Shown: positions 1,110 through 63,388 of the stretch, in pieces | Numbering within the stretch: position 1 is the first letter of the stretch | How the letters are laid out: each line of letters starts with the position of its first letter | Source: a virus | Lineage: Duplodnaviria > Caudoviricetes | Virus record (IMG/VR): IMGVR_UViG_2974613666_000001 | Location: 64,001 to 128,000 of that record | Reading direction: 5' to 3' (one strand) | Length of the DNA: 64,000 bases | Made by a program: the position numbers and the translations under genes | Notes under the pieces: generated by a model | The model's database searches: none | What the model was told of the DNA's origin: nothing | The model's input: only the letters and a program-made list of their open reading frames with translations

Positions 1110-1748
1110 ATGGAAAACCACGAAGTGATGATTTCAATAGGAGATACTGCTAAAGAACTTGGTGTTTCGGTAAAAACAATTCGCAGATGGGCAAATGCTG
1201 GCAAATTGCGCTTTGAGCGCAGCCCATCAGGTCATAGAAGATTTTTTCTTGCGGATATAAAACGGATAACACCGAGAGATTTTAACAAGCTAGAAGACCG
1301 TGTAACGATTAACTACGCTCGCGTTTCTAGTCATGACCAAAAAGATGATTTAACCCGGCAAATACAAGTATTAGAAGCTTTTAGTGGTACTAATGGCTGG
1401 CAGTTTGAAACTATTCAGGATTTAGGGTCTGGACTCAACTACAACAAAAAAGGACTTCAAAAATTGCTTAAGCGCATCATGAAAGGCGATGTTGGTCGAT
1501 TGGTGGTGACTCATAAAGATAGATTGCTCAGATTTGGCTCAGAACTTGTCTTTGCAATGTGTGAGGAGTACGAGACTGAGGTAGTAATTATCAACAAATC
1601 TGCTGAAGAGATAACATTTGAGCAAGAGCTAGTCACGGACATGATTGAGTTAATCACTGTGTTTTCGGCACGTTTGTATGGTTCTCGGAGTCGCAAAAAT
1701 AAGAAACTTTTAGATAACGTAGCTAAAGCTGTGCAAGAATCTTCCTAA
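1110..1748 (+). CDS. tnpA: IS607-family transposase TnpA (MerR-like HTH + serine recombinase)
   Basis: N-terminal HTH (AKELGVSVKTIRRW..SGHRRF), YARVSS catalytic motif, DLGSGLN, HKDRLLRFG, ELVTDMIELITVFSARLYG. Confidence 0.95.
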   Translation: MENHEVMISIGDTAKELGVSVKTIRRWANAGKLRFERSPSGHRRFFLADIKRITPRDFNKLEDRVTINYARVSSHDQKDDLTRQIQVLEAFSGTNGWQFETIQDLGSGLNYNKKGLQKLLKRIMKGDVGRLVVTHKDRLLRFGSELVFAMCEEYETEVVIINKSAEEITFEQELVTDMIELITVFSARLYGSRSRKNKKLLDNVAKAVQESS

Positions 1749-1750
1749 AT

Positions 1751-3073
1751 ATGTTGACATGGGGTAGATTTGGGTATATATTTAAGAAGTCACCAAAACA
1801 TTGTGAGGTCGAAACAGTGCTGCTTTCCTTTAAAACAAGTCTAATCCCAAATAAAAAACAGGTAACTGCTTTTCGTAAAGCCTCTGGTGTTGCTAGACAC
1901 GCCTATAACTGGGCTAACGCTCAAATACAAGATGCTCTAGCTAATAAAGTTGAAGGAGAGAAACTTAAGGTTCCCAGTTCTATCGACTTGCATAAAAAGC
2001 TAGTTGCCGAAGTTAAACTGGAAAACGCTTGGTACTACGAAGTTAATAAGAACACCCCTCAAAAAGCTTTAGCTGATTTGCGGCAAGCATGGGATAGATG
2101 TTTTAAAAAGACTTCAAAACAACCAAGATTTAAAAAGAAAGGTCAACGAGATTCATTCTATCTAGAGTCAGGCACTAAAGCCAAACCAATGATTAAGAAT
2201 GACGGTAAGAGAATCAAATTACCCTCTATTGGTTGGGTAAGATTAGCCGAGCCTTTACCAATTACAGCAATTCATAATTGCGTTATTTCAAGGCAAGCTG
2301 GTAGATGGTTTATCGCTATTAAATATGAAGTTGAACAGCCAAGTGTTACTAGCGACAGACCGACTATTGGTGTTGATATTGGAATCAAAGAATTAGCTGT
2401 TTGCAGTAATGGCAAAGTGTTCTCTAACCCTAAAGCATACCGACGTATGAGCAAGCGTATGAAGCGTTTGCAGCGTAGTGTAAGCAAAAAAGATAAAGGT
2501 TCTAAAAATCGTAACAAAGCGATTAAAAAACTTGCTAAATTACACGCTAAAGTGTCAAACATCCGTAAAGATTCAATTCACAAATTGACTCACTATCTAG
2601 CTAAAAACCACAGCATTATAAAGATAGAGGATTTACACGTTAAAGCGTTTTTGAAGAATCATAAATTAGCAGGTGCGATTGCTGATTGTGGAATGTATGA
2701 GTTTAAACGTCAGTTGGAGTATAAGACAGAGAAATTTCAAAGTCAGTTAATATTAGTTGACCGATTTTTTCCTAGTTCACAAACTTGTTCTAACTGTGGA
2801 AATCATCGCCATAGAATGCCATTGAAAAACCGCATCTATGTTTGTCCCGATTGTGGTCATACAGAAGACAGAGATTTGAATGCAGCTAAGAATATAGACC
2901 GATGGTTTGAGAATATTTTTATTCCTGAACGGTCAGAAATGGTGAGTTCCACCAAGATAGCCTGTGGAGTAGAAAAACCGCTTAGAAGTCATTCTAAGAC
3001 TACTGTGAAGCAGGAAGTAAGCGCTAAAACTACTGATGTCCAGATAAGTCTAGATTTAAGTAGTTTTGGGTAA
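1751..3073 (+). CDS. tnpB: RNA-guided endonuclease TnpB (IS607 type); true start may be the GTG near 1817
   Basis: RuvC I GVDIGIK, RuvC II IEDL, zinc finger CSNCG..CPDCG, RuvC III DRDLNAAKNI. Confidence 0.95.
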   Translation: MLTWGRFGYIFKKSPKHCEVETVLLSFKTSLIPNKKQVTAFRKASGVARHAYNWANAQIQDALANKVEGEKLKVPSSIDLHKKLVAEVKLENAWYYEVNKNTPQKALADLRQAWDRCFKKTSKQPRFKKKGQRDSFYLESGTKAKPMIKNDGKRIKLPSIGWVRLAEPLPITAIHNCVISRQAGRWFIAIKYEVEQPSVTSDRPTIGVDIGIKELAVCSNGKVFSNPKAYRRMSKRMKRLQRSVSKKDKGSKNRNKAIKKLAKLHAKVSNIRKDSIHKLTHYLAKNHSIIKIEDLHVKAFLKNHKLAGAIADCGMYEFKRQLEYKTEKFQSQLILVDRFFPSSQTCSNCGNHRHRMPLKNRIYVCPDCGHTEDRDLNAAKNIDRWFENIFIPERSEMVSSTKIACGVEKPLRSHSKTTVKQEVSAKTTDVQISLDLSSFG

Positions 3074-7468: not shown

Positions 7469-8980
7469 TTAGTTAGTTCTGTAGCTCTTGAAAGCCGTTT
7501 TTAGCCCATGCTGAACACGGCTTTCAATGTCTTTGGTGAACCATTCCAGGCAATACTCATCTATTTCTGGATCTCTTCTGAGTATTTTTAAGTCAGCTAG
7601 GAATTTTTTATTGTGTAGCACAACGCACTCGTCAATTAGGTCTTTCAGTTCTGGCAAAAAGAAGTGTTCTCGTTTTGGCTTACTGAAATGGGTGAACTGT
7701 GGATAAACCCAAGCTTCGGTTTTAAAGTTGAAATCTCCTGAGTTAACGTCTAGATCATTGTTGCAAACACAAGCAATGTATAGGTTGGCTTCCCAGTAAG
7801 CTGTGAGCCTTGCATCAATAGATGTAGATGGCTCAAGCATTGCCCTACTTGTACTCTTAAGGCAGTTCAGCCATTTCTTAGACTGCTCATAGTGTTCAAT
7901 AGCTTCTAGCACCTTTTGACAGGTATCCGGGCAATGCCTGATTAGTCTGTCTGTAACTTGAGTAGAGATTATCCTATGCTCAAGCATAACAGCGAATATG
8001 TCGCGCACTTTGAAATCTTGAGGGTAGCCCGCAACTATAGACTTGCATAGTCTGTAGATTATACGCTCGTGTTCCAATTCTTCCTTATCGCGTCTTATAC
8101 TGTCGTTAATGTCTATAAGATCGCGACGTTCACCAAATACCGTGAACCTATCTCTGCTTTGATATAGCTCTGTTTGCTCATAAAGGTAGTCGAAGTCCAT
8201 CTGAAATAAGTCTGACCACTCTTTGTCTTTAACTATGTGTCCTTTTCCGGGCAAGCCTTTCTTAGCTATTATGTCAGCCGGGGCAGACGCTACGACGGCT
8301 TTTATTTTATCTCTGGAAAGCTGTAGCAATGATTCTACCCCTGTGTCCTTACGTGCCTTATAAATGAACCAGAACGCATTCTTAATCATGTACATTGCCT
8401 TGAACACGTTTCGCTGTATTTGAGGAGCTAGCACAGACAAATCATTGAAGTATTCAGCAGACCCCATGATCTTGGTGAGGTCTTGTAAGAGGGGGGATGC
8501 TTGGTTAGTAACATAAAACTCTAAGCTGTCTATTTTATGCTCCTGACGACGTTTAATCTCTTTCAACACGTCTATTTGGCGCTGCAAAGCCTCTATATCA
8601 GCATCACTACCTTGGTGCATCTTAAACTTGGTCAAATCCTGAATAAATGCAGTAATGCCAATACGTCCTAGAGAAATTAAGGCTTTAATTGCTTCTGGTC
8701 TTTTTTCTGAGGCGTAGTAGGAGATTACGGCATGGCAGACTATAGAGTTGTAGACTTTCTGGTATTGGTGATCACAGATGACTAAATCAGATTCTTTTTT
8801 TCCGAATAGATTAAACAATTCAGAAAAATTAGATTTATTCTGCATCGCGTTATTTATCAGAGAGGATACAGCCTGTTGTGATACCCCTGACATCCTAGCG
8901 ATCGCTGTTTGGTTCATCCCACTTACACCAGTATCCAGCGATATAAACACTTGATCGTTTGACTCAAATATAAAACTCAT
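7469..8980 (-). CDS. 503-aa protein with an N-terminal HTH/antirepressor-like DNA-binding domain; the rest is unknown
   Basis: TGVSGMNQTAIARMSGVSQQAVSSL..ISYYA..LGRIGITAFIQ pattern. Coupled to the upstream HTH gene by an ATGA overlap. Confidence 0.6.
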   Translation of the reverse strand: MSFIFESNDQVFISLDTGVSGMNQTAIARMSGVSQQAVSSLINNAMQNKSNFSELFNLFGKKESDLVICDHQYQKVYNSIVCHAVISYYASEKRPEAIKALISLGRIGITAFIQDLTKFKMHQGSDADIEALQRQIDVLKEIKRRQEHKIDSLEFYVTNQASPLLQDLTKIMGSAEYFNDLSVLAPQIQRNVFKAMYMIKNAFWFIYKARKDTGVESLLQLSRDKIKAVVASAPADIIAKKGLPGKGHIVKDKEWSDLFQMDFDYLYEQTELYQSRDRFTVFGERRDLIDINDSIRRDKEELEHERIIYRLCKSIVAGYPQDFKVRDIFAVMLEHRIISTQVTDRLIRHCPDTCQKVLEAIEHYEQSKKWLNCLKSTSRAMLEPSTSIDARLTAYWEANLYIACVCNNDLDVNSGDFNFKTEAWVYPQFTHFSKPKREHFFLPELKDLIDECVVLHNKKFLADLKILRRDPEIDEYCLEWFTKDIESRVQHGLKTAFKSYRTN

Positions 8981-9186
8981 GCGTTGTTTCCTTTAGATAC
9001 GTGTTGTGCCAAAACTTCCTGAACTTTTACCAACTTTGCCAGTGATATAGTCTGGTATTGTGTTCGCTCCCACCTAGCTATCTGTTGCCTATGCAAGCCC
9101 AACTGATCAGCTAAAACTTGCTGTGACCAGCCTAGCTGATGTCGCAAATCTATCAGATGTTTAGGCAAGTTCTGTAAATCTATCAT
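8977..9186 (-). CDS. Xre-family HTH regulator
   Basis: LIDLRHQLGWSQQVLADQLGLHRQQIARWE. Confidence 0.9.
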   Translation of the reverse strand: MIDLQNLPKHLIDLRHQLGWSQQVLADQLGLHRQQIARWERTQYQTISLAKLVKVQEVLAQHVSKGNNA

Positions 9187-9512
9187 TAGTATATCACCTG
9201 TAAACGAAAATGTTTCAACTATCCCACTTTATTATTGCTGACAAGTTGAGTATTGTCCAGATGTTGATTATAGGACTACTAGCTTAGAAACTACTAGCAC
9301 TTAGCATAAAATAAAGTATTTGACACCGATGTATATAATACTGCTTGTAGCTCAAATATATTGCTGTATAAGGGGTTCAGATTATTTTATGTGTGTTTGC
9401 TTGTACCTTGGATTTTTCTATGATTACCATAGAGATGTTACAAATTGTATTTTAGAGGCTGGAACGCTTATACAGTACATACTACAATGTTTACACTCCA
9501 TTTTTGCCGCCG

Positions 9513-9570
9513 AGGGTGTGTCAGATTCTGAAGTAATTAAATTCAGATTATTCCGATTTTGACACACCCT
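9513..9570. repeat. Inverted repeat AGGGTGTGTCA..TGACACACCCT
   Basis: Perfect 11-bp arms plus an inner TCTGAA/TTCAGA stem. Confidence 0.75.
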
Positions 9571-9794
9571 ATTTATTTACATCTTTATAGCGATCACCAT
9601 AATCTAATTTAGTCAAAAGTTATACTATTTTAAATTATCTAATTAAGTTAAAGTATTGATATATAAGGATTATTGTCTAAGTATTACTATGAAGTTATAA
9701 CTCAAGCGGAAAAAATACTGATACTTAGTTAGATCGATTTAGGTCGTTTTAGTAGAAAGTATAGTTATGACAAATGGCTGAACATTATTGAACT

Positions 9795-10196
9795 AAAAAA
9801 ATAATGCTCTCGATGCTATTTAGTTTTGTAAAACTCCAGGACACTGCCAGATGCTTTATCAGTGCCGCTAAGAGGCATCTGGGGAGTTTGTTTTGCTATC
9901 ATCTTGCGAGTCAAGCGTTTTTCTAAAGACCGATGCTTTCACCATTGCTGGCAGCTTTCCGATTTTAATTAACTTTAGGGTTTATTAGGTAGATGGTGAC
10001 AGATGACCTTTTTTCTCGGTTCTTTTCATCCCTTTACACTGGTTTGGGTCTATTCGCACCAGCCCCGTCGGCCTTAACGACGTACCACTTTGCTTTTTGA
10101 GAGCTTCAACCCATTACTGGAGGCACTAGCGAACTAGTTGTGGATTTGCCTGGGTGTAGCTCGTCTCTTTCACCGATGAAGGCTACTTACGCACCC
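9795..10196 (-). ncRNA. Candidate large (~400 nt) structured non-coding RNA of unknown class
   Basis: No ORF of 60 aa or more and locally GC-richer. Own promoter (TTGCTA-N17-TATTAT-N6-GGG), many stems with GNRA/UUCG loops, a 3' pseudoknot and a terminal hairpin followed by T7. Confidence 0.75.
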
Positions 10197-10202
10197 AAAT
10201 AT

Positions 10203-10231
10203 ATAATAAGGTATTTCTCACCGTTTAGCAA
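10203..10231 (-). promoter_or_regulatory. Sigma70-type promoter of the candidate ncRNA
   Basis: -35 TTGCTA (10231-10226), 17-nt spacer, -10 TATTAT (10208-10203), predicted TSS G at 10196. Confidence 0.7.
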
Positions 10232-10319
10232 GTATTTCCGTAAAATAATCTGCTGCTGAGTTGGTAGTGTTTGTTTCTATCCATTTCTATCCCTAGGTTA
10301 GATAAAGATTCACCACCAA

Positions 10320-10356
10320 AAACAAACCCACTACGGTTAAGGTAGTGGGTTTGTTT
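10320..10356 (-). terminator. Intrinsic terminator hairpin
   Basis: AAACAAACCCACTAC/GTAGTGGGTTTGTTT stem; it would insulate the ncRNA promoter from upstream genes. Confidence 0.75.
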
Positions 10357-10377
10357 GTTTCATCATATTCAGATTAG

Positions 10378-10632
10378 CTAACTCACCGGATACCATCCAT
10401 CACCTTTCCAATAGCCAATGTCACCCTTTCTTGTAACTTCCCAATCTTCATCACTCCAATCCTTGGAATGTTCGTCGCACTTTTCGCAAAAGTAAAGGCT
10501 GTAAATCTCATTATCCTAGCTCACAGCGTTAAAACATCGCATCTTTGAGCCTGCTGGGAACGATCGCTGGCAACCATAGCATTGGTGTGTTTTGCATGTC
10601 TTAGCCTGTTTGTCTTCTAGAACTCTGGTCAT
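10378..10632 (-). pseudogene. Small zinc-ribbon protein (CYGC..CEKC) with an in-frame TAG
   Basis: Translates as MTRVLEDKQAKTCKTHQCYGC..FNAVS*DNEIYSLYFCEKCDEH..WYPVS, with the stop at 10516-10518. Confidence 0.65.
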
Positions 10633-10655
10633 TGTTTTACCTGCTGTCCTCTAAT

Positions 10656-10973
10656 TCAGTTGCCACTTGTTTTAACATCTTTGATTGCGATTATATTTAC
10701 TAATCTCATCGATCTAATATCTGTTTTCCATTCATTCCTACATTGCCTGAACGCAGGTAAAGAATAATCAGTGAATTCAAACTCCAGTAAATGAGCATAA
10801 CGCCCCTGTACCCACTGCGAGTTATTAAATTTACCATTCATAGGGTTGGTTTTAATCCAGGCAATATTAGGACTAAAGCACTTTTCCCGGTTACGGTGAA
10901 ATTGTAAGCTTTGGTGGTAGAGTGTTAAATCTCTTTCTACTTGGCACATCGCACGGTATAGAGTAAGGCTCAT
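10656..10973 (-). CDS. Hypothetical protein
   Basis: 105-aa ORF preceded by a GAGG RBS. Confidence 0.6.
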   Translation of the reverse strand: MSLTLYRAMCQVERDLTLYHQSLQFHRNREKCFSPNIAWIKTNPMNGKFNNSQWVQGRYAHLLEFEFTDYSLPAFRQCRNEWKTDIRSMRLVNIIAIKDVKTSGN

Positions 10974-10982
10974 AGCAAACCT

Positions 10983-11147
10983 CTATTCGTTTACTCCTGG
11001 GATATGGAAGTGCTTCCGCATAGATTTGATATAATCTCGCAGCACTTCCGCCATAGGCTGCTGTTTTGATTCAGCATAATCCTGTAACAAATTATATTCA
11101 TTTTCACTCAGTCTCACTTCTATTTTCCGTGTTCTTTTAGTTCGCAT
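10983..11147 (-). CDS. Ribbon-helix-helix (CopG-like) regulator, 54 aa (below the ORF-track cutoff)
   Basis: MRTKRTRKIEVRLSENEYNLLQDYAESKQQPMAEVLRDYIKSM. Confidence 0.75.
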   Translation of the reverse strand: MRTKRTRKIEVRLSENEYNLLQDYAESKQQPMAEVLRDYIKSMRKHFHIPGVNE

Positions 11148-11315
11148 AGTGTTAAATGTAATGCTTTATGCTATGCTTAGTCTATCACAGATACGAGGTT
11201 AATGACGATAGTATATCACCTATTTCAAGACATGATTAGAAATTATTGAGTAATAAAGTAGTACATCTGACTCTATATTTACATCAAATCTACACAAATT
11301 CACATAGTATCAATT

Positions 11316-11582
11316 ATGATAGGTATTGTCTACATGAAATTAAACAGGTTAAACATTGCACTAAGTGACTCTGATTTAAGATGGTTAACGATTTGGGCTT
11401 GGGTTAGTGGTCGAACTCCTGGTGCTTATGCTTCTCACATAGTCTCTAATCGAGTTTCTACAAACCTGAAAGAGATTAAGGGGCGACTACAGGATGAGGC
11501 AGATTTAAAGGGTATAAGCCTAAAAGAACTGATAAAAGAAATTGTAGGAGAGATAGATGATCCAGAAAGTAAGGAAGATTAA
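11316..11582 (+). CDS. Small putative DNA-binding protein (RHH-like)
   Basis: RLNIALSDSDLRWL strand-helix pattern. Confidence 0.5.
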   Translation: MIGIVYMKLNRLNIALSDSDLRWLTIWAWVSGRTPGAYASHIVSNRVSTNLKEIKGRLQDEADLKGISLKELIKEIVGEIDDPESKED

Positions 11583-11588
11583 ATTGCC

Positions 11589-11831
11589 ATGACATTAGAA
11601 ACCAACACTAAATTCACAGGCATGATTATGTTCAGCCTGCTAAACCTGCTGATAGGCAGCGCAGCACTCAGTACCTTATCAAAAGTCTCACAAACAGCAG
11701 ATGAGACAGTTAGAATGCGTGTTGAGTTAGCTAATTTAAGCAAGTCACTGGATAATTATGTTGCTACCCATACAGAGCAATGGCGGCTTATTGATGCCAG
11801 ATTGCGCGATGTGGAATCCAAGATTAGGTAA
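11589..11831 (+). CDS. Single-TM coiled-coil protein (holin/XhlA-like by topology)
   Basis: N-terminal hydrophobic helix and a C-terminal DARLRDVESK coiled coil. Confidence 0.5.
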   Translation: MTLETNTKFTGMIMFSLLNLLIGSAALSTLSKVSQTADETVRMRVELANLSKSLDNYVATHTEQWRLIDARLRDVESKIR

Positions 11832-11851
11832 TAGACATCATCTCATTAAAC

Positions 11852-11887
11852 AAAAAACCCACTTAAAGCACTAAGTGGGTTTTTTTG
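11852..11887. terminator. Bidirectional intrinsic terminator
   Basis: AAAAAACCCACTTA/TAAGTGGGTTTTTT between convergent genes. Confidence 0.8.
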
Positions 11888-11907
11888 ATCAAATCTAAAA
11901 GGTGATA

Positions 11908-13995
11908 TTAGAAATCGACTTTCTTCAGTTGATCTTTAAACTCAATCAAGGCAACAGAGCCGTCAAAATAAATCACGTTATCAGCAGGGGCGATCGCTTG
12001 CCAATCTTTTCTGCTACCGTTTAGGTCTGCTGACAGGGTAAGTAAAGAAGCGTCTCCAGGTACATCACCGTATTTGGGTAGCGTTTGCCCTAGCACTTTG
12101 CGAGAGTCACGCCCTTGTACCTTGTAAGCTGCCATACCGCCAACGAAAACTGAGTCTTCATTCACTAACAGGGTTTTGGCTCTCAAAGCGTTCCCGTCCA
12201 TCGAGTCGGTGCGAGTCAGTGTAAATTGACCACTAATAACTTTCAAAGTATTAGCGGCTAAAACACCTGTGTAAGATATATGATTTGCTTTGGTTTTTGT
12301 TCCCAATGAGAACCAGTCCACACCCTCAGCAATAGTCTGTGTTTTCAGATCGAAGCCATTCCATCTGAAAACGCTATTACCACCTGCTGACTCGCCTAAA
12401 ACGTATAACTTGTCTCCCACAAGTTGAATACGGTAAAGCCTAGCGTCAGCCATATCGTTACCGAGAGATTCGGGATCAAAGTTCCAACCGCTTCGGACAA
12501 TTTGGAAACTTTTGCTAGCATCAAATACTTTTAAGAAAGCAACTTGAACTGGCACACCTTGACGGGTGCGGTTACTGAAACCAGCAACATAGATTTCATT
12601 ATTGCTTATTTGGACATCTTGCAGATATGTGCCAGACTCACCCCATCTAAAAACTTCTTTATAGTTGGAGTCGTAAACTGCAAATTGATTTCCGTTTTCG
12701 CCAACATTTTCAACAATTACTGTGTACAGCGTACTTGCAGCTAACCTTACACCGTTCAATTCCTTACCTAAACTTTTAATTACCTCTGTTTTCGCTGTGC
12801 TTGGGTTATAGCTAATAAGTAAGCTTCTAGTAACTGCCAAAATCACATTACCGCGTAAAGCTACAGCTAAAGTAGGTTCAGGCGAGATAACCTTTGCCTT
12901 ATCTCCATCAATTTCTACAAACCCAGACCCTTTAGACGCAACATACAGTTTACCGTTGTATTTAATGGCATCTTGAGGTTGCAGTATAGGTAACTCTTGG
13001 ATGTTGGTTACTTCTTTTCTGGGTGCAGTCTGGATGGGAGTAGAAAGGAAGTAGGGGGTGAAGTAAGGTTCTTGCCCACCATGTCTAACGTAAGTAATCA
13101 ATTCATTACCTACTTTCGCAACAGAGCGAGTGTATCCAACGTCTAAGCGTTCTTGAGGATAGAATCTATCTTCTTTTGCCTTGTACAGTAGCGTACCTTG
13201 GTTGGCGATAAAGATCACTTCACCTGGAGCGATAACTTCAACCATACCATTGTACCAAGCGGGGCTGATTTCCCGCCAACTCTTTTCATTGAGTTTGCGC
13301 TGAAACTGACCCTGTTGAGTGTGAGCGTATAGTGTGTTAGTGGTAGTATCCAGAGCAAGTTGGCAATTAGAGGAATTGGGTTTATTTCCGGTAGCATTGG
13401 TTAGGTTTAGACCCTCAATTTTACTTGTTACTTCACCAGTAGCTAGGTTGCATTCAACCATACCGTCAAAATCCCTAAAACCAATATAGAGAACATCTCC
13501 CAGAAGAATAAACGAGGTCATTACCCGACCTTTAATTAAGGGATTCGACTCTAAATTGATGCTTCTGGTAGAGCCACTGGCACTTAGTAAGCTCCCTTTT
13601 AACTCTCTCTCCCCTAGAGTTAACGCAGAAACGTCATTGCAGATTATTTTATTTGCTTTAATCCCAGGGAAGCTAACCCAAGACTGAATATCTTGATTAC
13701 GAATGTCGGGAACATAATAAACATCTGTATGTAATTTCATCCACCCCTTGTAGGGGTCGGTAGAGGATGGGCGGTACTCGTAGTTGTTGTAGAAGTTTAC
13801 AAGTTTGTTCTTATCCAAGGAGCCGAAAGGTTTGATCGAGAGTCTTTCTTGCGCCCCACCTCCCCCATAAATAACAATTTCATCACGCAAACAAAATACT
13901 ACCTTACCCGCAGACGGGCTTAAAGCAAATGATTTGTAGTACTCATTTGGGTCATTGTGGTTTGTGTCGAAGCCTAAATCTAGTCTTGTAGTCAT
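11908..13995 (-). CDS. 695-aa predicted beta-propeller protein
   Basis: Repeated beta-blade-like patterns (GDVLYIG, NGKLYVAS, NNEIYVAG, GDKLYVLG, DSVFVGG). Confidence 0.6.
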   Translation of the reverse strand: MTTRLDLGFDTNHNDPNEYYKSFALSPSAGKVVFCLRDEIVIYGGGGAQERLSIKPFGSLDKNKLVNFYNNYEYRPSSTDPYKGWMKLHTDVYYVPDIRNQDIQSWVSFPGIKANKIICNDVSALTLGERELKGSLLSASGSTRSINLESNPLIKGRVMTSFILLGDVLYIGFRDFDGMVECNLATGEVTSKIEGLNLTNATGNKPNSSNCQLALDTTTNTLYAHTQQGQFQRKLNEKSWREISPAWYNGMVEVIAPGEVIFIANQGTLLYKAKEDRFYPQERLDVGYTRSVAKVGNELITYVRHGGQEPYFTPYFLSTPIQTAPRKEVTNIQELPILQPQDAIKYNGKLYVASKGSGFVEIDGDKAKVISPEPTLAVALRGNVILAVTRSLLISYNPSTAKTEVIKSLGKELNGVRLAASTLYTVIVENVGENGNQFAVYDSNYKEVFRWGESGTYLQDVQISNNEIYVAGFSNRTRQGVPVQVAFLKVFDASKSFQIVRSGWNFDPESLGNDMADARLYRIQLVGDKLYVLGESAGGNSVFRWNGFDLKTQTIAEGVDWFSLGTKTKANHISYTGVLAANTLKVISGQFTLTRTDSMDGNALRAKTLLVNEDSVFVGGMAAYKVQGRDSRKVLGQTLPKYGDVPGDASLLTLSADLNGSRKDWQAIAPADNVIYFDGSVALIEFKDQLKKVDF

Positions 13996-14109
13996 ACAAC
14001 AAAATAAATTACTTACTACAAAACTAGCAAAATAGATTATTTTGTTGTATGACCAACTTAATAGAACAAGTGATATATGTTACTTTAGTATTAATTAGGC
14101 ATTAAATAA

Positions 14110-14292
14110 ATGAAACACGATCTAGTAATACCAATGTGGTTTGGTAGCCTTGGTGTTGTCCTGATAATACTCCTGATATTTAAACCACCTACCAATGAGA
14201 AAATAGTAGAAATTATTGGTGCAACGGCTACGGGTCTAGTTACAGGGGCGATCGCTGTAGCAGTACCCACTATAAAGAATGGGAGACTTTGA
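14110..14292 (+). CDS. Small two-TM membrane protein
   Basis: Two hydrophobic helices in 60 aa. Confidence 0.55.
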   Translation: MKHDLVIPMWFGSLGVVLIILLIFKPPTNEKIVEIIGATATGLVTGAIAVAVPTIKNGRL

Positions 14293-14353
14293 CTCAAGGA
14301 AAAGCACTTAAGTAATCACTTAAGTGCTAGTTCAGTGTCCAAGGTAGCATCAG

Positions 14354-14425
14354 TGTCGGGTATGGGAGTTGAACCCACTTTTTTCAGGATATGAGCCTGA
14401 CGTGAAACCGTCTCACTCACCCGGC
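14354..14425 (-). tRNA. tRNA with CAT anticodon (Met or Ile2), atypical
   Basis: Acceptor GCCGGGT/ACCCGAC, D stem GTGA/TCAC, anticodon arm TCAGG-CTCATAT-CCTGA, T arm GTGGG-TTCAACT-CCCAT. No encoded CCA. Confidence 0.85.
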
Positions 14426-14490
14426 TATTTCAATATATCACTTAAATTCTATTTCAACAACTAAACCATGATAGGTGCTTTGGTAGTCAC

Positions 14491-14976
14491 TTATTCCCAT
14501 CCTTTTTCAGCTTCCTTAAGTTTCACTGGATCAACTTCCTCACCTGCCTCAGCTTCGTGCTTCATATTCAGCACCTGCAAACACTCAACAGCGATTGGTA
14601 CTAGCCTCCCTGTGTATGTTTGACCTAAAAGCATATAGGACATAGGTGGAATAATAATACCAGTTAAAGCACAGACTTCCTCACGCCAGGTTTGAGAAGC
14701 GATCGTACTTTTGATATCTGCTGCTACAAGTTTACGTTCATGCTCTGGTTTACTAGGTAAATGTTCATCACAGTAAGCCGTGAGAATATTAACAGCCAAT
14801 TGGTTACGGGAAATTGCACAAGGTTCGGCTTGTGCTGCTAAAGTTTCTAATCTCCTAATTAGCTCTTTAGGTAACGCGATATAAATAGCTAGTTCGTTTG
14901 ATGCAAGAGATAGTCCCATATTAACCAGCCCATAGATAACAGTATTTGTCTGGTGAAGCTGAAATTTCTTTCTCAA
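14491..14976 (-). CDS. RHH-domain protein (likely start MGLSL near 14919)
   Basis: IYIALPKELIRRLETLA..ISRNQLAVNIL. Confidence 0.55.
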   Translation of the reverse strand: MRKKFQLHQTNTVIYGLVNMGLSLASNELAIYIALPKELIRRLETLAAQAEPCAISRNQLAVNILTAYCDEHLPSKPEHERKLVAADIKSTIASQTWREEVCALTGIIIPPMSYMLLGQTYTGRLVPIAVECLQVLNMKHEAEAGEEVDPVKLKEAEKGWE

Positions 14977-15214
14977 TCTCGTACCAATTGTTGCAACCCG
15001 ACATTGCTGAAATTGCCTCTAACTGGTGCTTTACTTCTTTGGCTGGTTTACGGTTGTAGTTGTTGCATAGGCTGGACAGACTGTTGCCATCTTCATCAGT
15101 ATCGTTGGTCATTGTTAATCTGTGGCACTTGTGTGAGCCGTCGAAAGCGTAATGATAGGCAAACGGAAGCTTTTCAGGTTCCAGCAAAGTTAACATTACA
15201 GTCATTTTATGCAA
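14921..15214 (-). CDS. Hypothetical protein
   Basis: 97-aa ORF in the same operon. Confidence 0.5.
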   Translation of the reverse strand: MHKMTVMLTLLEPEKLPFAYHYAFDGSHKCHRLTMTNDTDEDGNSLSSLCNNYNRKPAKEVKHQLEAISAMSGCNNWYEIEKEISASPDKYCYLWAG

Positions 15215-41904: not shown

Positions 41905-43089
41905 CTACCTCGTCACTTGCTCTAATAGGCTTTCGCCTAAAAGAGTAGCGGCCACGAGTCCTACAGCGTTACTTTGGGAATGCCCTTCCCTAGCTTGTCT
42001 TGCAAGATTCAAAATGTTAATTGCTGCATTTTCATCCCTATGCAAACTACATCCACAATTACAAACATGGGTGCGCGTTGATAGGGATTTTTTAACGATA
42101 GCATCACAGTTTGAACATTTTTGTGATGTGTAATGTGGTGCTACAGCAATGGCTAATTTACCAAATTTACCAGCAAAATACTCAATCCATTGCCGAAACA
42201 AATACCAGCTAGCGTCAGCAATTGACTTAGCTAAACAATGATTTTTGAGTAAATTACGCACTCGTAAGTCTTCATAGGCTACTAAGTCGTTAGACTTGCA
42301 CACGTTACGCGCTATTCTCTTAGCGTGTTCATTCCGTTGCCTACTTATTCTCAAATGCTTTCTGGCAAATATAGCTCTAGCTTTTTTACGTCCTGACGAA
42401 CCTTTTTTCTTTTTGTAAATGCGTCTTTGAGCGTGTTTGATTTTTGACTCAGCCTTTCTCAAAAACTTGGGATTAGCCTCTTGATGTCCGTTTGAGTCTG
42501 TGTAAAAGCTCTGAATTCCAACGTCTAAACCAATTTCATTACCTGCCAATGGTTGAATGTCTAAAACCTCAACATCAATACAAAATTGACAGTAATAGCC
42601 ATCAGCACGGCGTACCAATCTAACACGCTTAATTGATTTAACCGGGTAAGTTTCAATATCCCACTTACCCAGCAATTTCAACTCACCAATACCTTTTTTG
42701 TCAGTAATGGTAATACGGCGTTGAGTTTGGTTTAGCTTCCAACCTGATGTTTTATACTCAACCGAGCGATTATCATGCTGAAATCTTGGATACCCTTTTT
42801 TACCTGATACTTTCTTTTTACAATTTTCGTAAAACCTTGATATTGCTAACCATGCTCTTTCGGCTGATGATTGCACTGCCATTGAATTTAAGTTAGCCAC
42901 AAATTTAAATTCGTTGCGTAGTTCCGTTGAATACTTATTGAGCGCAAATCTATCAATTTTCAACTCTCTTGGTGCATCCATCCAATACCTCAAACACTTA
43001 TTTCTAATGAATTGAGTTGTTTTGATGGCTTCCTCAATAGCTAAGTATTGTAGTTTTTTGGCTTTGACTTTATACTCTAGAACTAGCAA
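41905..43089 (-). CDS. tnpB: RNA-guided endonuclease TnpB
   Basis: GLDVGI, AYEDL, TSQKCSNC..HVCNCG, HRDENAAINI. Confidence 0.95.
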   Translation of the reverse strand: MLVLEYKVKAKKLQYLAIEEAIKTTQFIRNKCLRYWMDAPRELKIDRFALNKYSTELRNEFKFVANLNSMAVQSSAERAWLAISRFYENCKKKVSGKKGYPRFQHDNRSVEYKTSGWKLNQTQRRITITDKKGIGELKLLGKWDIETYPVKSIKRVRLVRRADGYYCQFCIDVEVLDIQPLAGNEIGLDVGIQSFYTDSNGHQEANPKFLRKAESKIKHAQRRIYKKKKGSSGRKKARAIFARKHLRISRQRNEHAKRIARNVCKSNDLVAYEDLRVRNLLKNHCLAKSIADASWYLFRQWIEYFAGKFGKLAIAVAPHYTSQKCSNCDAIVKKSLSTRTHVCNCGCSLHRDENAAINILNLARQAREGHSQSNAVGLVAATLLGESLLEQVTR

Positions 43090-59938: not shown

Positions 59939-62900
59939 ATGTCAACTAGCACAATAACCAATACACATGAGTATTTCGACTTAGTAAATCCCAGCTATAT
60001 CAGTTGGGAATTTTACTCGCAATATATTGACAAGGAACCTCCGTTTGGTGACTTGGGGTTAATTGTTTACTTAAGAACCTATAGCCGCTTTGTAGAGGAG
60101 TTAAGTAGACGTGAGAAGTGGTGTGAGTGCTGCTTGCGTACAGTTGAGTATTCTGTCAGCTTAGATAATAAAAGCCCCGTAGAGTGGAAAAAAGCTGAAG
60201 CTGAGAAGCTGTTTGACATGATGTTCAATATGCGTGGTTTCCCCGCAGGTCGTACATTATGGATGGGTGATAAGAACAAAGCGATCGCGCAAACAGCCAA
60301 TTTTAACTGCTCCTTTAGGGTTATAGACAGCATTTCAGCCTATTCTGAGATTATATATCTGCTGATGGTTGGTGCTGGCGCTGGCTTCTCTGTTCAAAAC
60401 GAGTATGTCTCTAAGCTGCCAACGTTTAACACTGATTTCAAAGTTGACCATATTCCATTTGTGAAACAGTCCAAGGTGGCTAATCAGGATGATACAGTGC
60501 TGGAACTTGCTGATGATCATGATTGGGGTTACGTATGTAAGAAGACCTTCACTGAGCAAGACCTAATTAAGCCCGAAGGCTACTTTATTCCAACCATTTC
60601 TGACATCTCTTTATATACTGAAGCCAAAATCACAGTAGGTGATAGCCGTGTTGGTTGGAGCAACGCATTACGTCTATTTTTAGAACTACTGACTCATACT
60701 AATATTAAAAACATTTCAATCAATTACAACCTAATCCGTCCTAAAGGTGCGAGATTAAAAACTTTTGGTGGACGTGCCTCTGGTTATGCTCCTCTTAAGA
60801 CGTTCTTCAGAAAAGCTGAATGGCTAATTAAGAACTGTGGTGGTAAATTTACCTCAGTAGTCGCTATGGATTTGGCTAACATAATCGCTGAAGTGGTTGT
60901 TGTAGCGGGTGTAAGAAGGTCGAGTGAGATAGGTATAGGTGATGCCTGGGATGTAGCTTTTAAGACAGCTAAGTATGACCTGTTTAGATACGATCCTGGG
61001 TTCACATCATCTGGTTTAGAACTCGTCTCAGACGACGGAAATATGAGTGCTGTTGAAGCCATAGCCGAAACGTATGAAGCTTTTAAATACCAGGTAACAA
61101 TTGCTGATATCATTGCAGACGATGCTGAACATGGTGGTCTACTTCCAACACTCGCCAAAAGATTTGACTTATGGGATACGCAAGATCCTAAAAACGTTGA
61201 GGTTCAAAAGCTTGTAGATTCAGTTGACCCTAAATTCCGCTACCGTGAAAGCCGTGTAATGTCTAATAACTCCATTGGGCTGCAAACTAAGCCCAGTCGA
61301 GAAGAGTTGGAAACTTTAGTCACTTTCATTAAGAATAACGGTGAACCTGGGCTATTTAACTATGAAGCGGGACGCAAACGCAGGGCTGATTTCCAGGGAT
61401 CGAACCCTTGTTTCACTGGCGATATGCGGTTGCTAACCTCAGATGGTTACAAGACTTTTTCTGATCTATCGGTGTCTGATGATATTGCTCTTGTAGATTA
61501 TGTCGGACGCGTACGCAGGGGTAAGGTATGGAGCAACGGTATCAAACCATGTGTTGAGTTAAGGCTCTCTAATGATGTCAAGCTTAGATGCACAGCAGAC
61601 CATAGATGGATGACTTCTCAGCAATCTAGTGTTCAAGCCTCGGAATTAAAAAATCAACAACTAATGCCTTTTATTTCCAAACCCTACCACGATAGTTCTT
61701 GGGTTAGGTATGGTTTCATTCAGGGTGATGGTAACACCAGCAGATTATTGAGCGAGACACATAAAGGGATTGAAGTTAATATCGGAGATAATGACACTGA
61801 TATATACGGCTTGTTTTCTAGCGTTAGCTTCACTAAGAATAAATCAGGCAGAGTGATATATCTCAACGACTCTAAAGATATGGCTGTTATCAGCCGTATT
61901 GGTTATTCTACCAGCACTCTACCTGAGAGGGTTTTACCTCTTTGCTACTCTAGTCTAAATAAAGCGGAAAAAGCTGCTTTTCTATCTGGTTGCTATTCTG
62001 CTAATGGGTCTGTACTTGTGTCTGCTAGGCATGTTACCTACAAATCTACTTGTAGAGAATTATTAGAGCAGATTCAGGATAGCTTACTAGAAGACTTTAA
62101 CATCAACAGCTACATCACCACTAATAAACCCAAGGATGTAGAGTTTGTCAATGGTTCTTATAAATGCAAGGAGAGTCACGACTTAAATATTGCCTCTTAT
62201 GAGGATAGGCTAGCGTTCTACAATCAGATAGGTTTTGCTCAAACCTATAAGACAGAGCGACTGCTGCATGATCTTATCAACTCTTCTCCATTTGTAACAT
62301 CTATCAAGAAAATACAACCTCAAGAAGTGTTTGATTTTAGTCTTGATTATGTACACCCTATAGATGGTGAGCTTGACACCCACTGGGGAGTAGTCGAGGG
62401 TCGTATAGCTCACAACTGCGGAGAAATCCTATTACGCAATAAGGCTGTGTGCAACCTCACAGAAGGAAATTTGAGAGCATACGTCAGACCGGATAAATCT
62501 TTTGACTTCCTCACATTTGAATCTGACCTACGCTTACTCACTCGTATCGGTAGCCGTGTGACACTAGTTAAAATGTGGCATCCAGATTGGGACACAGTTC
62601 AAAGTGAAGACCGCTTACTTGGTGTTTCATTGACTGGACAGTGTGACGCTTGGCTTGCAATGGGTAATCCTTCTGACACAGTTAAAAATGAGATTCTAGC
62701 TTTTGCCAAGAGAATAGTTAGAGATGAGGAAGAAAAGTACCACAGCTTCTTAGGTATCCCGCGCTCAAAACTCACCACTACTGGCAAACCAAGCGGAACG
62801 ATCGCCCAGTTGCCAACAGTATCAAGTGGTTGTCATCAGCCTTACGCACCTTACTACTTTCGTAACGTCAGAATTAGCAGCACTGACCCGTTGGCTAGAG

Positions 62901-63388
62901 TTTTACGTGAGGCTGGTGTACCAGTAGCGCCTAATGGTAATAAAGGCACTTTGGAAGAGGCAGATACTTGGGTGTTTACATTCCCAATCAAGACTAATGC
63001 TCAGATTAAGTCAGTTGACGAGCCTGTACTTGAGCAATTAGAGCGCTACAAGAACCTGATGCAGCATTACGTTGAACATAACCAATCAGTTACTATCAGT
63101 GTCGCGCCAGATGAATGGGATTTAGTGGTTAACTGGCTTGATGAGAACTGGGATAACTTTGTTGGTATCAGTTTCTTACCTAAGTTTGATTCAACTATTG
63201 GTGAAGACGGTAGCTTCCCTCAAATGCCCTACGTCACAGCTAATGAGGAAAGATACAACGAGATGCTCCCTAAATTCCCACGACTACAGGAAGACCAACT
63301 GATTGAGATGATTGCACAGTATGAGAAATCCCAAGAAGAATATACTCTTGAAGATAGCTGCTCTACGGGTGCTTGTCCTGTTCGGTAA
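59939..63388 (+). CDS. nrdJ: Class II (B12-dependent) ribonucleotide reductase with an intein
   Basis: YLRTYSR, PAGRTLW, NFNCSF, GARLKTFGGRASG, GVRRSSEI, SNNS, NGEPG, NPC|GEI, KPSGT, C-terminal CSTGACPVR. Confidence 0.95.
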   Translation: MSTSTITNTHEYFDLVNPSYISWEFYSQYIDKEPPFGDLGLIVYLRTYSRFVEELSRREKWCECCLRTVEYSVSLDNKSPVEWKKAEAEKLFDMMFNMRGFPAGRTLWMGDKNKAIAQTANFNCSFRVIDSISAYSEIIYLLMVGAGAGFSVQNEYVSKLPTFNTDFKVDHIPFVKQSKVANQDDTVLELADDHDWGYVCKKTFTEQDLIKPEGYFIPTISDISLYTEAKITVGDSRVGWSNALRLFLELLTHTNIKNISINYNLIRPKGARLKTFGGRASGYAPLKTFFRKAEWLIKNCGGKFTSVVAMDLANIIAEVVVVAGVRRSSEIGIGDAWDVAFKTAKYDLFRYDPGFTSSGLELVSDDGNMSAVEAIAETYEAFKYQVTIADIIADDAEHGGLLPTLAKRFDLWDTQDPKNVEVQKLVDSVDPKFRYRESRVMSNNSIGLQTKPSREELETLVTFIKNNGEPGLFNYEAGRKRRADFQGSNPCFTGDMRLLTSDGYKTFSDLSVSDDIALVDYVGRVRRGKVWSNGIKPCVELRLSNDVKLRCTADHRWMTSQQSSVQASELKNQQLMPFISKPYHDSSWVRYGFIQGDGNTSRLLSETHKGIEVNIGDNDTDIYGLFSSVSFTKNKSGRVIYLNDSKDMAVISRIGYSTSTLPERVLPLCYSSLNKAEKAAFLSGCYSANGSVLVSARHVTYKSTCRELLEQIQDSLLEDFNINSYITTNKPKDVEFVNGSYKCKESHDLNIASYEDRLAFYNQIGFAQTYKTERLLHDLINSSPFVTSIKKIQPQEVFDFSLDYVHPIDGELDTHWGVVEGRIAHNCGEILLRNKAVCNLTEGNLRAYVRPDKSFDFLTFESDLRLLTRIGSRVTLVKMWHPDWDTVQSEDRLLGVSLTGQCDAWLAMGNPSDTVKNEILAFAKRIVRDEEEKYHSFLGIPRSKLTTTGKPSGTIAQLPTVSSGCHQPYAPYYFRNVRISSTDPLARVLREAGVPVAPNGNKGTLEEADTWVFTFPIKTNAQIKSVDEPVLEQLERYKNLMQHYVEHNQSVTISVAPDEWDLVVNWLDENWDNFVGISFLPKFDSTIGEDGSFPQMPYVTANEERYNEMLPKFPRLQEDQLIEMIAQYEKSQEEYTLEDSCSTGACPVR
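61409..62416 (+). mobile_element. Intein (336 aa) with LAGLIDADG homing endonuclease in nrdJ
   Basis: Starts CFTGDMRLLT, block B CTADHRW, LAGLIDADG-like YGFIQGDG and FLSGCYSANG, ends IAHN before C+1. Confidence 0.93.

Follow-up and report, generated by a model that had tools for sequence, protein, structure and literature searches.

The longest stretch without ORFs of at least 60 aa in the 145-kb virus genome studied here (1093 nt) contains a locus that a preliminary description, made from the sequence alone, had presented as a large, pseudoknotted noncoding RNA with its own promoter and terminator. The question was whether this locus encodes a functional RNA and, if so, of which kind. The window, i.e., the whole 64,000-nt stretch of DNA that was analysed and to which coordinates refer unless stated otherwise, spans positions 64001-128000 of a virus record of 145,400 bp that was rated complete. 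Positions 9700-10300 of the window showed 100% identity to Nodularia phage vB_NspS-kac65v162 (MK605244.1, genus Ravarandavirus), a tailed cyanophage from the Baltic Sea whose host is Nodularia spumigena KAC65. The locus is set in the phage genome of a filamentous cyanobacterium and not in a prophage, the genome being that of a tailed cyanophage isolated on N. spumigena. As had been noted earlier, no long ORF was present, which was confirmed for all frames of both strands. On eight environmental contigs, 1470 nt of this region received no call from an independent gene caller. On the two strands of the locus, GenBank lists three "hypothetical proteins" with lengths of 32-39 residues; this public annotation of the locus as three tiny hypothetical proteins is a mis-annotation. 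The candidate and the terminator upstream of it were located as follows.

9795..10196, minus strand: candidate noncoding transcript, about 400 nt, 45% G+C (no long ORF, RNA-library contigs, no Rfam family, tetraloop hairpins on this strand only)
10320-10356, minus strand: upstream intrinsic terminator with a 15-bp perfect stem, a 7-nt loop and a T-run (inverted repeat I2; z = -6.1)

On its 5′ side, the RNA is preceded on the same strand by genes for an RHH/Arc-like protein (DUF6290, 54 aa) and a 105-aa protein, by two tiny ORFs and then by this strong terminator, which ends the upstream operon and sets its genes apart from the candidate RNA promoter. The RNA start lies ~120 nt from the terminator. 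The 3′ side of the RNA is occupied by a 600-nt AT-rich spacer with promoter-like elements and an inverted repeat with 20-nt arms; beyond it come an XRE regulator and then a 503-aa orphan with a BstA-like DNA-binding domain in its N-terminal 140 residues. The neighbourhood looks like a regulatory and accessory region. The RNA segment has 45% G+C versus 30% for the adjoining downstream noncoding spacer. Several neighbours were of interest in their own right. At 10656-11147 (minus strand), the 54-aa RHH/Arc-like protein, with a weak DUF6290 match, directly precedes the 105-aa protein, which has no Pfam family and 43 distant relatives, and the gene layout resembles a type II toxin-antitoxin pair. 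In the 503-aa orphan (7469-8980, minus strand), the N-terminal ~140 residues match the BstA abortive-infection DNA-binding domain and the PADLOC "HTH" model; its C-terminal 360 residues were unmatched and no homologue was found outside this phage. The inverted repeat at 9513-9570, whose 20-nt arms are 85% complementary, is found where the plus-strand ORF gp099 ends, within the invariant spacer described below; it may act as a terminator or bind a protein.

Whether the locus is transcribed was assessed from metatranscriptomes. Six runs contain parts of 9300-10700, and four of them, from three studies, were compared over 8500-11500. These RNA-library runs had been picked because they contained this stretch; their contigs carry no strand information and no exact ends, and contig-free parts of the 3-kb stretch were not taken as proof of silence. 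A contig lay on the candidate RNA in 4/4 runs (9886-10560, 9814-10013, 9846-10173 and 9886-10170), and all RNA-library contigs were identical to the window sequence. The spacer at 9207-9812 was covered by no contig of the four runs. Two contigs ended at 10173 and 10170, falling 23-26 nt short of the predicted start. In one run, the 3′ half of the RNA was sampled far more deeply than its surroundings.

9814..10013, minus strand: high-depth 3′ half in one RNA library (contig of run X16, depth 94.6)

The depth of this contig was about 7-18-fold above that of its neighbours (5.2 and 12.7). No promoter-like site was found upstream of 10013; because of this, we infer processing, and the contig possibly represents a processed, stable species of ~200 nt. 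On the other hand, the contig of run X15 spans the RNA, the upstream terminator and the sequence up to 10560; given this bridging contig, some of the RNA-library molecules may be read-through or DNA carry-over. With regard to the transcript of about 400 nt starting from 10196 that had been predicted, contigs lay within 9814-10173 with ends close to the predicted ones, but one bridged to 10560. A discrete, sometimes abundant transcript is probably made at the locus, the evidence from the unstranded contigs being reasonable, not conclusive. Assignment to the minus strand rests solely on the promoter match, the T-run and the asymmetry of tetraloops.

The signals expected at the two ends of such a transcript, and its coding potential, were then considered.

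10203..10231, minus strand: sigma-70-like promoter candidate TTGCTA-N17-TATTAT with 9/12 matches, the start being placed near G10196
9795..9812, minus strand: weak hairpin and T7 run, putative 3′ end (T7 at 9795-9801; no RNA-library contig below 9814)
9816..9914, minus strand: small ORF of 32 codons from UUG or 28 from an internal AUG (GenBank hypothetical protein gp100)

The elements of the promoter claimed earlier do exist, with TTGCTA-N17-TATTAT at 10231-10203 and, 3′ of it, GGG at 10196, but matches of this quality are as frequent as chance predicts: eight of 9/12 quality were found in 2.2 kb versus 7.7 expected from shuffles. The claim of an own terminator was not upheld, since only a weak hairpin followed by T7 is present and a terminator scan at the RNA 3′ end called no terminator-like site.

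The small ORF raises the alternative that the transcript, or its abundant 3′ half, serves as a short mRNA encoding a micro-protein (28-32 residues; 9816-9914, minus strand), with hairpins that are incidental or regulate translation. The ORF is located inside the 3′ half of the RNA and its stop lies 15 nt ahead of the T7 run, a typical small-gene layout; moreover, the abundant 9814-10013 contig includes the whole ORF, annotated as gp100 in GenBank, together with a leader of about 100 nt. However, no Shine-Dalgarno sequence was found upstream of it, its longest form begins with UUG, and a 15-bp hairpin occupies the ORF. Many cyanobacterial genes have no Shine-Dalgarno sequence. The independent gene caller left this ORF uncalled on the eight contigs, and ORFs of 28-32-codon size arise by chance on every frame at the locus. 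Taken together, a micro-protein mRNA appears quite unlikely.

Next to coding potential, the fold was examined. All complementary segments of the stems listed in the preliminary description were found on the minus strand at the positions given there. The elaborate structure built from them did not hold up. The 402-nt RNA has an MFE of -95.5 kcal/mol with z = +0.45, and 69/100 dinucleotide shuffles fold as well. In sliding 120-nt windows over the RNA on the minus strand, z ranged from -1.0 to +0.7, and the sole regional outlier was the terminator at 10320-10356. By the yardstick of a structured noncoding RNA, i.e., a fold more stable than its shuffles, neither the global nor the local values set this RNA apart. 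The listed stems alone gave -52.6 kcal/mol, and -79.7 with the best fill-in, versus -95.5 when unconstrained, so that, fill-in included, the proposed model is about 16 kcal/mol less stable than the MFE structure. In the ensemble, the pair probability was <=0.03 for P1, P3, P4, P5 and P11, which include the long-range stems of the multibranch domain. Two pairs of stems share bases: the UGG of the GUAA hairpin with GGGUU, and AACCC with CUAAAG.

Individual hairpins fared better.

10125..10138, minus strand: hairpin ACUAG-UUCG-CUAGU (RNA positions 59-72; pair probability 0.92)
9940..9953, minus strand: hairpin UGCCA-GCAA-UGGUG (RNA positions 244-257; pair probability 0.85)
9831..9889, minus strand: 3′ hairpin of 7 + 8 bp, AAACUCC/GGAGUUU around CCAGAUGC/GCAUCUGG (local z -0.9 to -1.0)

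Hairpins with stems of at least 3 bp capped by GNRA or UNCG loops numbered 5 on the minus strand versus 0.9 expected (P about 0.0015, a test chosen after the sequence was seen and therefore weighed moderately), and zero on the plus strand of the same stretch. Genome-wide, on either strand, the locus is the densest region of tetraloop-capped hairpins. The second-densest cluster, seven in 400 nt, lies outside the window at genome positions 131600-132050 (minus strand), in a region with ORFs, and had no match in Rfam. The 3′ hairpin at 9831-9889 carries a 9-nt 3′ bulge that is able to pair with the loop instead (GGCACUG/CAGUGUC). In the nested ensemble, the long hairpin (probability 0.45-0.52) and the competing loop pairing (0.45) are alternatives. 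The strand that would form the pseudoknot (RNA 351-357) follows directly after the 8-bp stem, with a linker of 0 nt; by geometric reasoning, the pseudoknot and the full 8-bp stem look unable to coexist, the arrangement being sterically strained. The pseudoknot proposed at 9831-9889 is in this sense reduced to complementary strands that exist but compete (0.45 vs 0.52).

These data bear on the possibility that the locus encodes a large RNA that adopts a defined tertiary fold, built on a multibranch core and a pseudoknot and representing a new class (ribozyme, scaffold or decoy). Stable UUCG, GUAA and GCAA loops on short helices joined by A-rich linkers, as in large structured RNAs, would fit such a molecule, as would the significant strand-specific enrichment of tetraloops, the invariance, the abundance in one sample and the absence of an Rfam family. 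However, the z values (+0.45 global, about 0 local), the excess of 16 kcal/mol over the MFE, the probabilities of <=0.03 for most long-range stems, the overlapping stems and the 0-nt pseudoknot linker all speak against it; furthermore, no homologue was found that would give access to covariation, and a partner protein gene, e.g., for a reverse transcriptase, is missing from the vicinity. We regard this possibility as very unlikely, and the ornate fold should not be propagated until probing data are available. As part of the reading that we prefer, the RNA is only locally structured, with a few tetraloop hairpins and one long 3′ hairpin separated by A-rich single-stranded linkers.

Sequence constancy was compared over 7601-14000 among ten independent copies: the window, the GenBank isolate and eight contigs of different samples and years. 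They differed at 51 variable sites in 7601-14000, zero of which fell in 9220-10560, and no differences were found over the RNA itself.

9220..10560, no strand assigned: invariant block without an ORF of at least 60 aa, comprising the upstream terminator, the RNA and the gp099-containing spacer of 30% G+C

A largest variant-free gap of at least 1341 has P = 0.0003 under uniform placement, and P = 0.014 with clustered sites merged. The ORF-poor block varies less than the flanking genes. Overall identity among the compared copies is at least 99.4%, and few differences occur in 15-18.3 kb as well. As a separate observation, the near-identical environmental copies showed two small clusters of substitutions and indels at 11857-11879 and 13109-13219, one in the gap between gp109 and the adjoining plus-strand gene, the other within gp109.

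Part of this pattern could be explained without any function, if the locus were intergenic DNA with incidental transcription and its invariance came from a recent sweep or a recombination tract. The near-identity of all copies (at least 99.4%), the likewise difference-poor 15-18.3 kb and the lack of relatives outside the species agree with this. On the other hand, a largest variant-free gap of this size has P = 0.0003 to 0.014 in ten sequences of different samples and years; noncoding DNA should vary more than flanking genes, not less; and the locus gives the strongest tetraloop signal of the genome. We consider this the least probable of the explanations weighed here, and the feature at the locus is real and probably functional.

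Because the invariant block exceeds the RNA, the constraint may fall partly on DNA sites. The function could then reside with the DNA, or with transcription as such, the block being a 1.3-kb control region and the RNA a by-product, a 3′ UTR or read-through product, a primer or an interference transcript. Such a region would hold promoters, XRE/Arc operators and possibly a replication or packaging signal. The reach of the invariant 9220-10560 well past the RNA into the 30% G+C spacer, with regulators on both sides, is in favour of this explanation, and so are the inverted repeat at 9513-9570, the terminator-bridging contig and a second TATTATATA...GGTG element at about 9324-9345. About 2 kb from the locus, cumulative GC skew reaches its genome-wide maximum; this peak coincides with a switch in gene orientation and is for that reason not evidence of an origin. 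However, the RNA segment is unlike the spacer in G+C content (45% vs 30%) and in its strand-specific tetraloops, its depth in one run was about 7-18-fold above that of neighbouring genes, and a repeat scan of the locus region found neither tandem repeats nor iterons. A function at the DNA level, with the transcript secondary, seems unlikely.

Homologues of the RNA were searched for in several ways. Against phages and plasmids, blastn at E<=10 returned only chance matches of 26-41 nt. BLAST against five named Nostocales genomes and 401 host-order genomes gave no RNA homologue; four host-order matches on one common 3′ segment were dismissed as lying in unrelated AT-rich contexts. Exact-pattern scans of viral contigs yielded nothing related, the five matches obtained being GC-rich coding sequences, and pattern scans of genome contigs and metagenome contigs were empty. 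With nhmmer, no RNA relative was detected in the retrieved loci or in the phage's own genome. Synteny was also used. The 503-aa and 695-aa neighbour proteins are near-orphans, and the one 56% relative of the latter was not syntenic; among the 43 distant relatives of gp105, the two closest lie in dense gene arrays without a comparable gap; and the helicase has no close relatives among viral contigs. The literature held nothing on this RNA. The RNA sequence is known from one phage species only.

Comparison with known RNA classes led to the same picture. On the minus strand in 9795-10200, Rfam 15 gave no match at the gathering score or at E<=10, as the failure to recognise a known family by eye had suggested; the families covered include GOLLD, ROOL, HEARO, OLE, raiA, tmRNA, RNase P, 6S, group I/II introns and self-cleaving ribozymes. 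Over the whole phage genome, Rfam reported one tRNA only (14354-14425, minus strand, 46.8 bits, anticodon CAU), which is annotated as tRNA-Met in GenBank and was not reported by ARAGORN. A tmRNA or tRNA-like gene was rejected, ARAGORN finding no gene in 9000-15000. No RVT_1 match was present anywhere in the 145-kb genome, and retron, DRT, DGR and mobile group II RNAs are disfavoured because the genome has no reverse transcriptase. An HDV-like fold, a tRNA-like cloverleaf, a type I toxin-antitoxin system and a replication origin were rejected as well.

Among known systems, RNAs of phages show some resemblances. Like GOLLD, ROOL and other large phage-associated RNAs, the candidate is phage-borne, has no long ORF, extends over hundreds of nt and contains tetraloop-capped hairpins. 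However, it is shorter, belongs to a cyanobacterial host, has no Rfam match at E<=10 and shows no thermodynamic signal; because there is no homologue family, it also lacks a covariation-supported fold, unlike GOLLD and ROOL. The P4 CI RNA, c4 of P1/P7, lambda oop and P22 sar are RNAs of 70-200 nt with known complementary targets nearby. The candidate resembles them as a stand-alone phage transcript between repressor-type genes (XRE, Arc) that may be processed to a shorter form. By contrast, its longest complementarity to the phage genome was 12-13 nt, and host-order genomes gave chance-level matches only. P4 CI, c4, oop and sar would be functional analogies with no shared sequence family, and membership cannot be claimed.

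RNAs of TnpB and Cas12k systems were considered since the phage has two tnpB genes and hosts of this order have type V-K CAST. Moreover, a CCUCC..UGGGUUGAAG motif in the candidate RNA recalls what we take to be the end of a Cas12k repeat. Pattern scans of genome and metagenome contigs did not find this motif. An omega RNA was rejected: the locus lies at least 6.7 kb from either tnpB (1751-3073, plus strand; 41905-43089, minus strand), not at a tnpB 3′ end, and has no similarity to the flanks of its own tnpB genes or to 80 cyanobacterial tnpB loci. A Cas12k tracrRNA was rejected too, as the genome of Scytonema hofmanni UTEX 2349, presumably the source of ShCAST, gave only chance matches, neither cas12k nor another Pfam domain appeared in the neighbours and the locus has no repeats. 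The tnpB genes themselves (OrfB_IS605 / Cas12f-like TNB; within 1110-3073, plus strand, and 41905-43089, minus strand) have relatives up to 89% identical across filamentous cyanobacteria, and a 212-aa ORF before the first may be an IS607-type TnpA. The sister isolate v162 has its IS-type transposase genes (gp090-092) where it does not align with the window, the identity between the two being only about 66-68%. Elsewhere in the window, a 1149-aa ribonucleotide reductase ORF (59939-63388, plus strand) contains a central LAGLIDADG domain, which suggests an intein.

Two further systems share the layout of the locus. A type III toxin-antitoxin system (ToxI-like) has the same-strand order of promoter, RNA, terminator and protein genes. 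It was rejected, there being no tandem repeats and the downstream products being HTH proteins, not ToxN/AbiE-type nucleases; the candidate also differs in having a 600-nt spacer and a separate promoter-like site before its next gene. An ORF-less group II (IIC) intron was brought to mind by GUGCG at RNA 3-7, the length of about 400 nt and the position downstream of a terminator hairpin. However, the candidate starts about 120 nt past the terminator, not adjacent to it, and a 3′ bulge occurs in just one GNRA hairpin, whose stem is of 3 + 4 bp, not the 9 + 5 bp of domain V. With no domain V/VI match in Rfam at E<=10 and no reverse transcriptase in the genome, this possibility was discarded.

These comparisons also bear on the claim of a new phage RNA class, which the tests run did not support, the candidate being a single sequence from one phage species. 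Because of this confinement, it is not yet callable a new RNA class. That it might be the sole known member of a new cyanophage RNA class, with packing of its tetraloops, a switchable 3′ hairpin/pseudoknot, a scaffold, decoy or ribozyme role and selection at the RNA level, strikes us as highly doubtful.

The reading that we favour, if tentatively, is that of a regulatory RNA of about 0.4 kb which is specific to the phage, transcribed independently and structured only locally. The minus-strand RNA would run from about 10196 to about 9800, within a strongly constrained regulatory intergenic block of a Nodularia siphovirus, between a terminator-ended, Arc/RHH-led operon and an XRE-led operon. Processing in an A-run near RNA position 184 may give the stable 3′ species of ~200 nt. 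The RNA would most likely regulate the infection programme in trans, via single-stranded A-rich segments or protein binding. Transcription (from unstranded contigs), the approximate ends, the absence of a long ORF, the constancy and the strand-specific tetraloop hairpins are supported by the data above, and we infer promoter use, processing, trans action and any target.

Phages of Nodularia spumigena contribute to the control of the toxic blooms that this cyanobacterium forms in the Baltic Sea in summer. To our knowledge, regulatory RNAs are poorly understood in phages that infect filamentous cyanobacteria. No stretch of its neighbourhood is more invariant than the locus described here, which was also found in environmental RNA libraries of three studies dated 2016 to 2025. 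It is best described as a species-restricted, constrained phage transcript, most likely a regulatory noncoding RNA. If it is a functional RNA, it would offer a handle on infection control by this isolated phage lineage.
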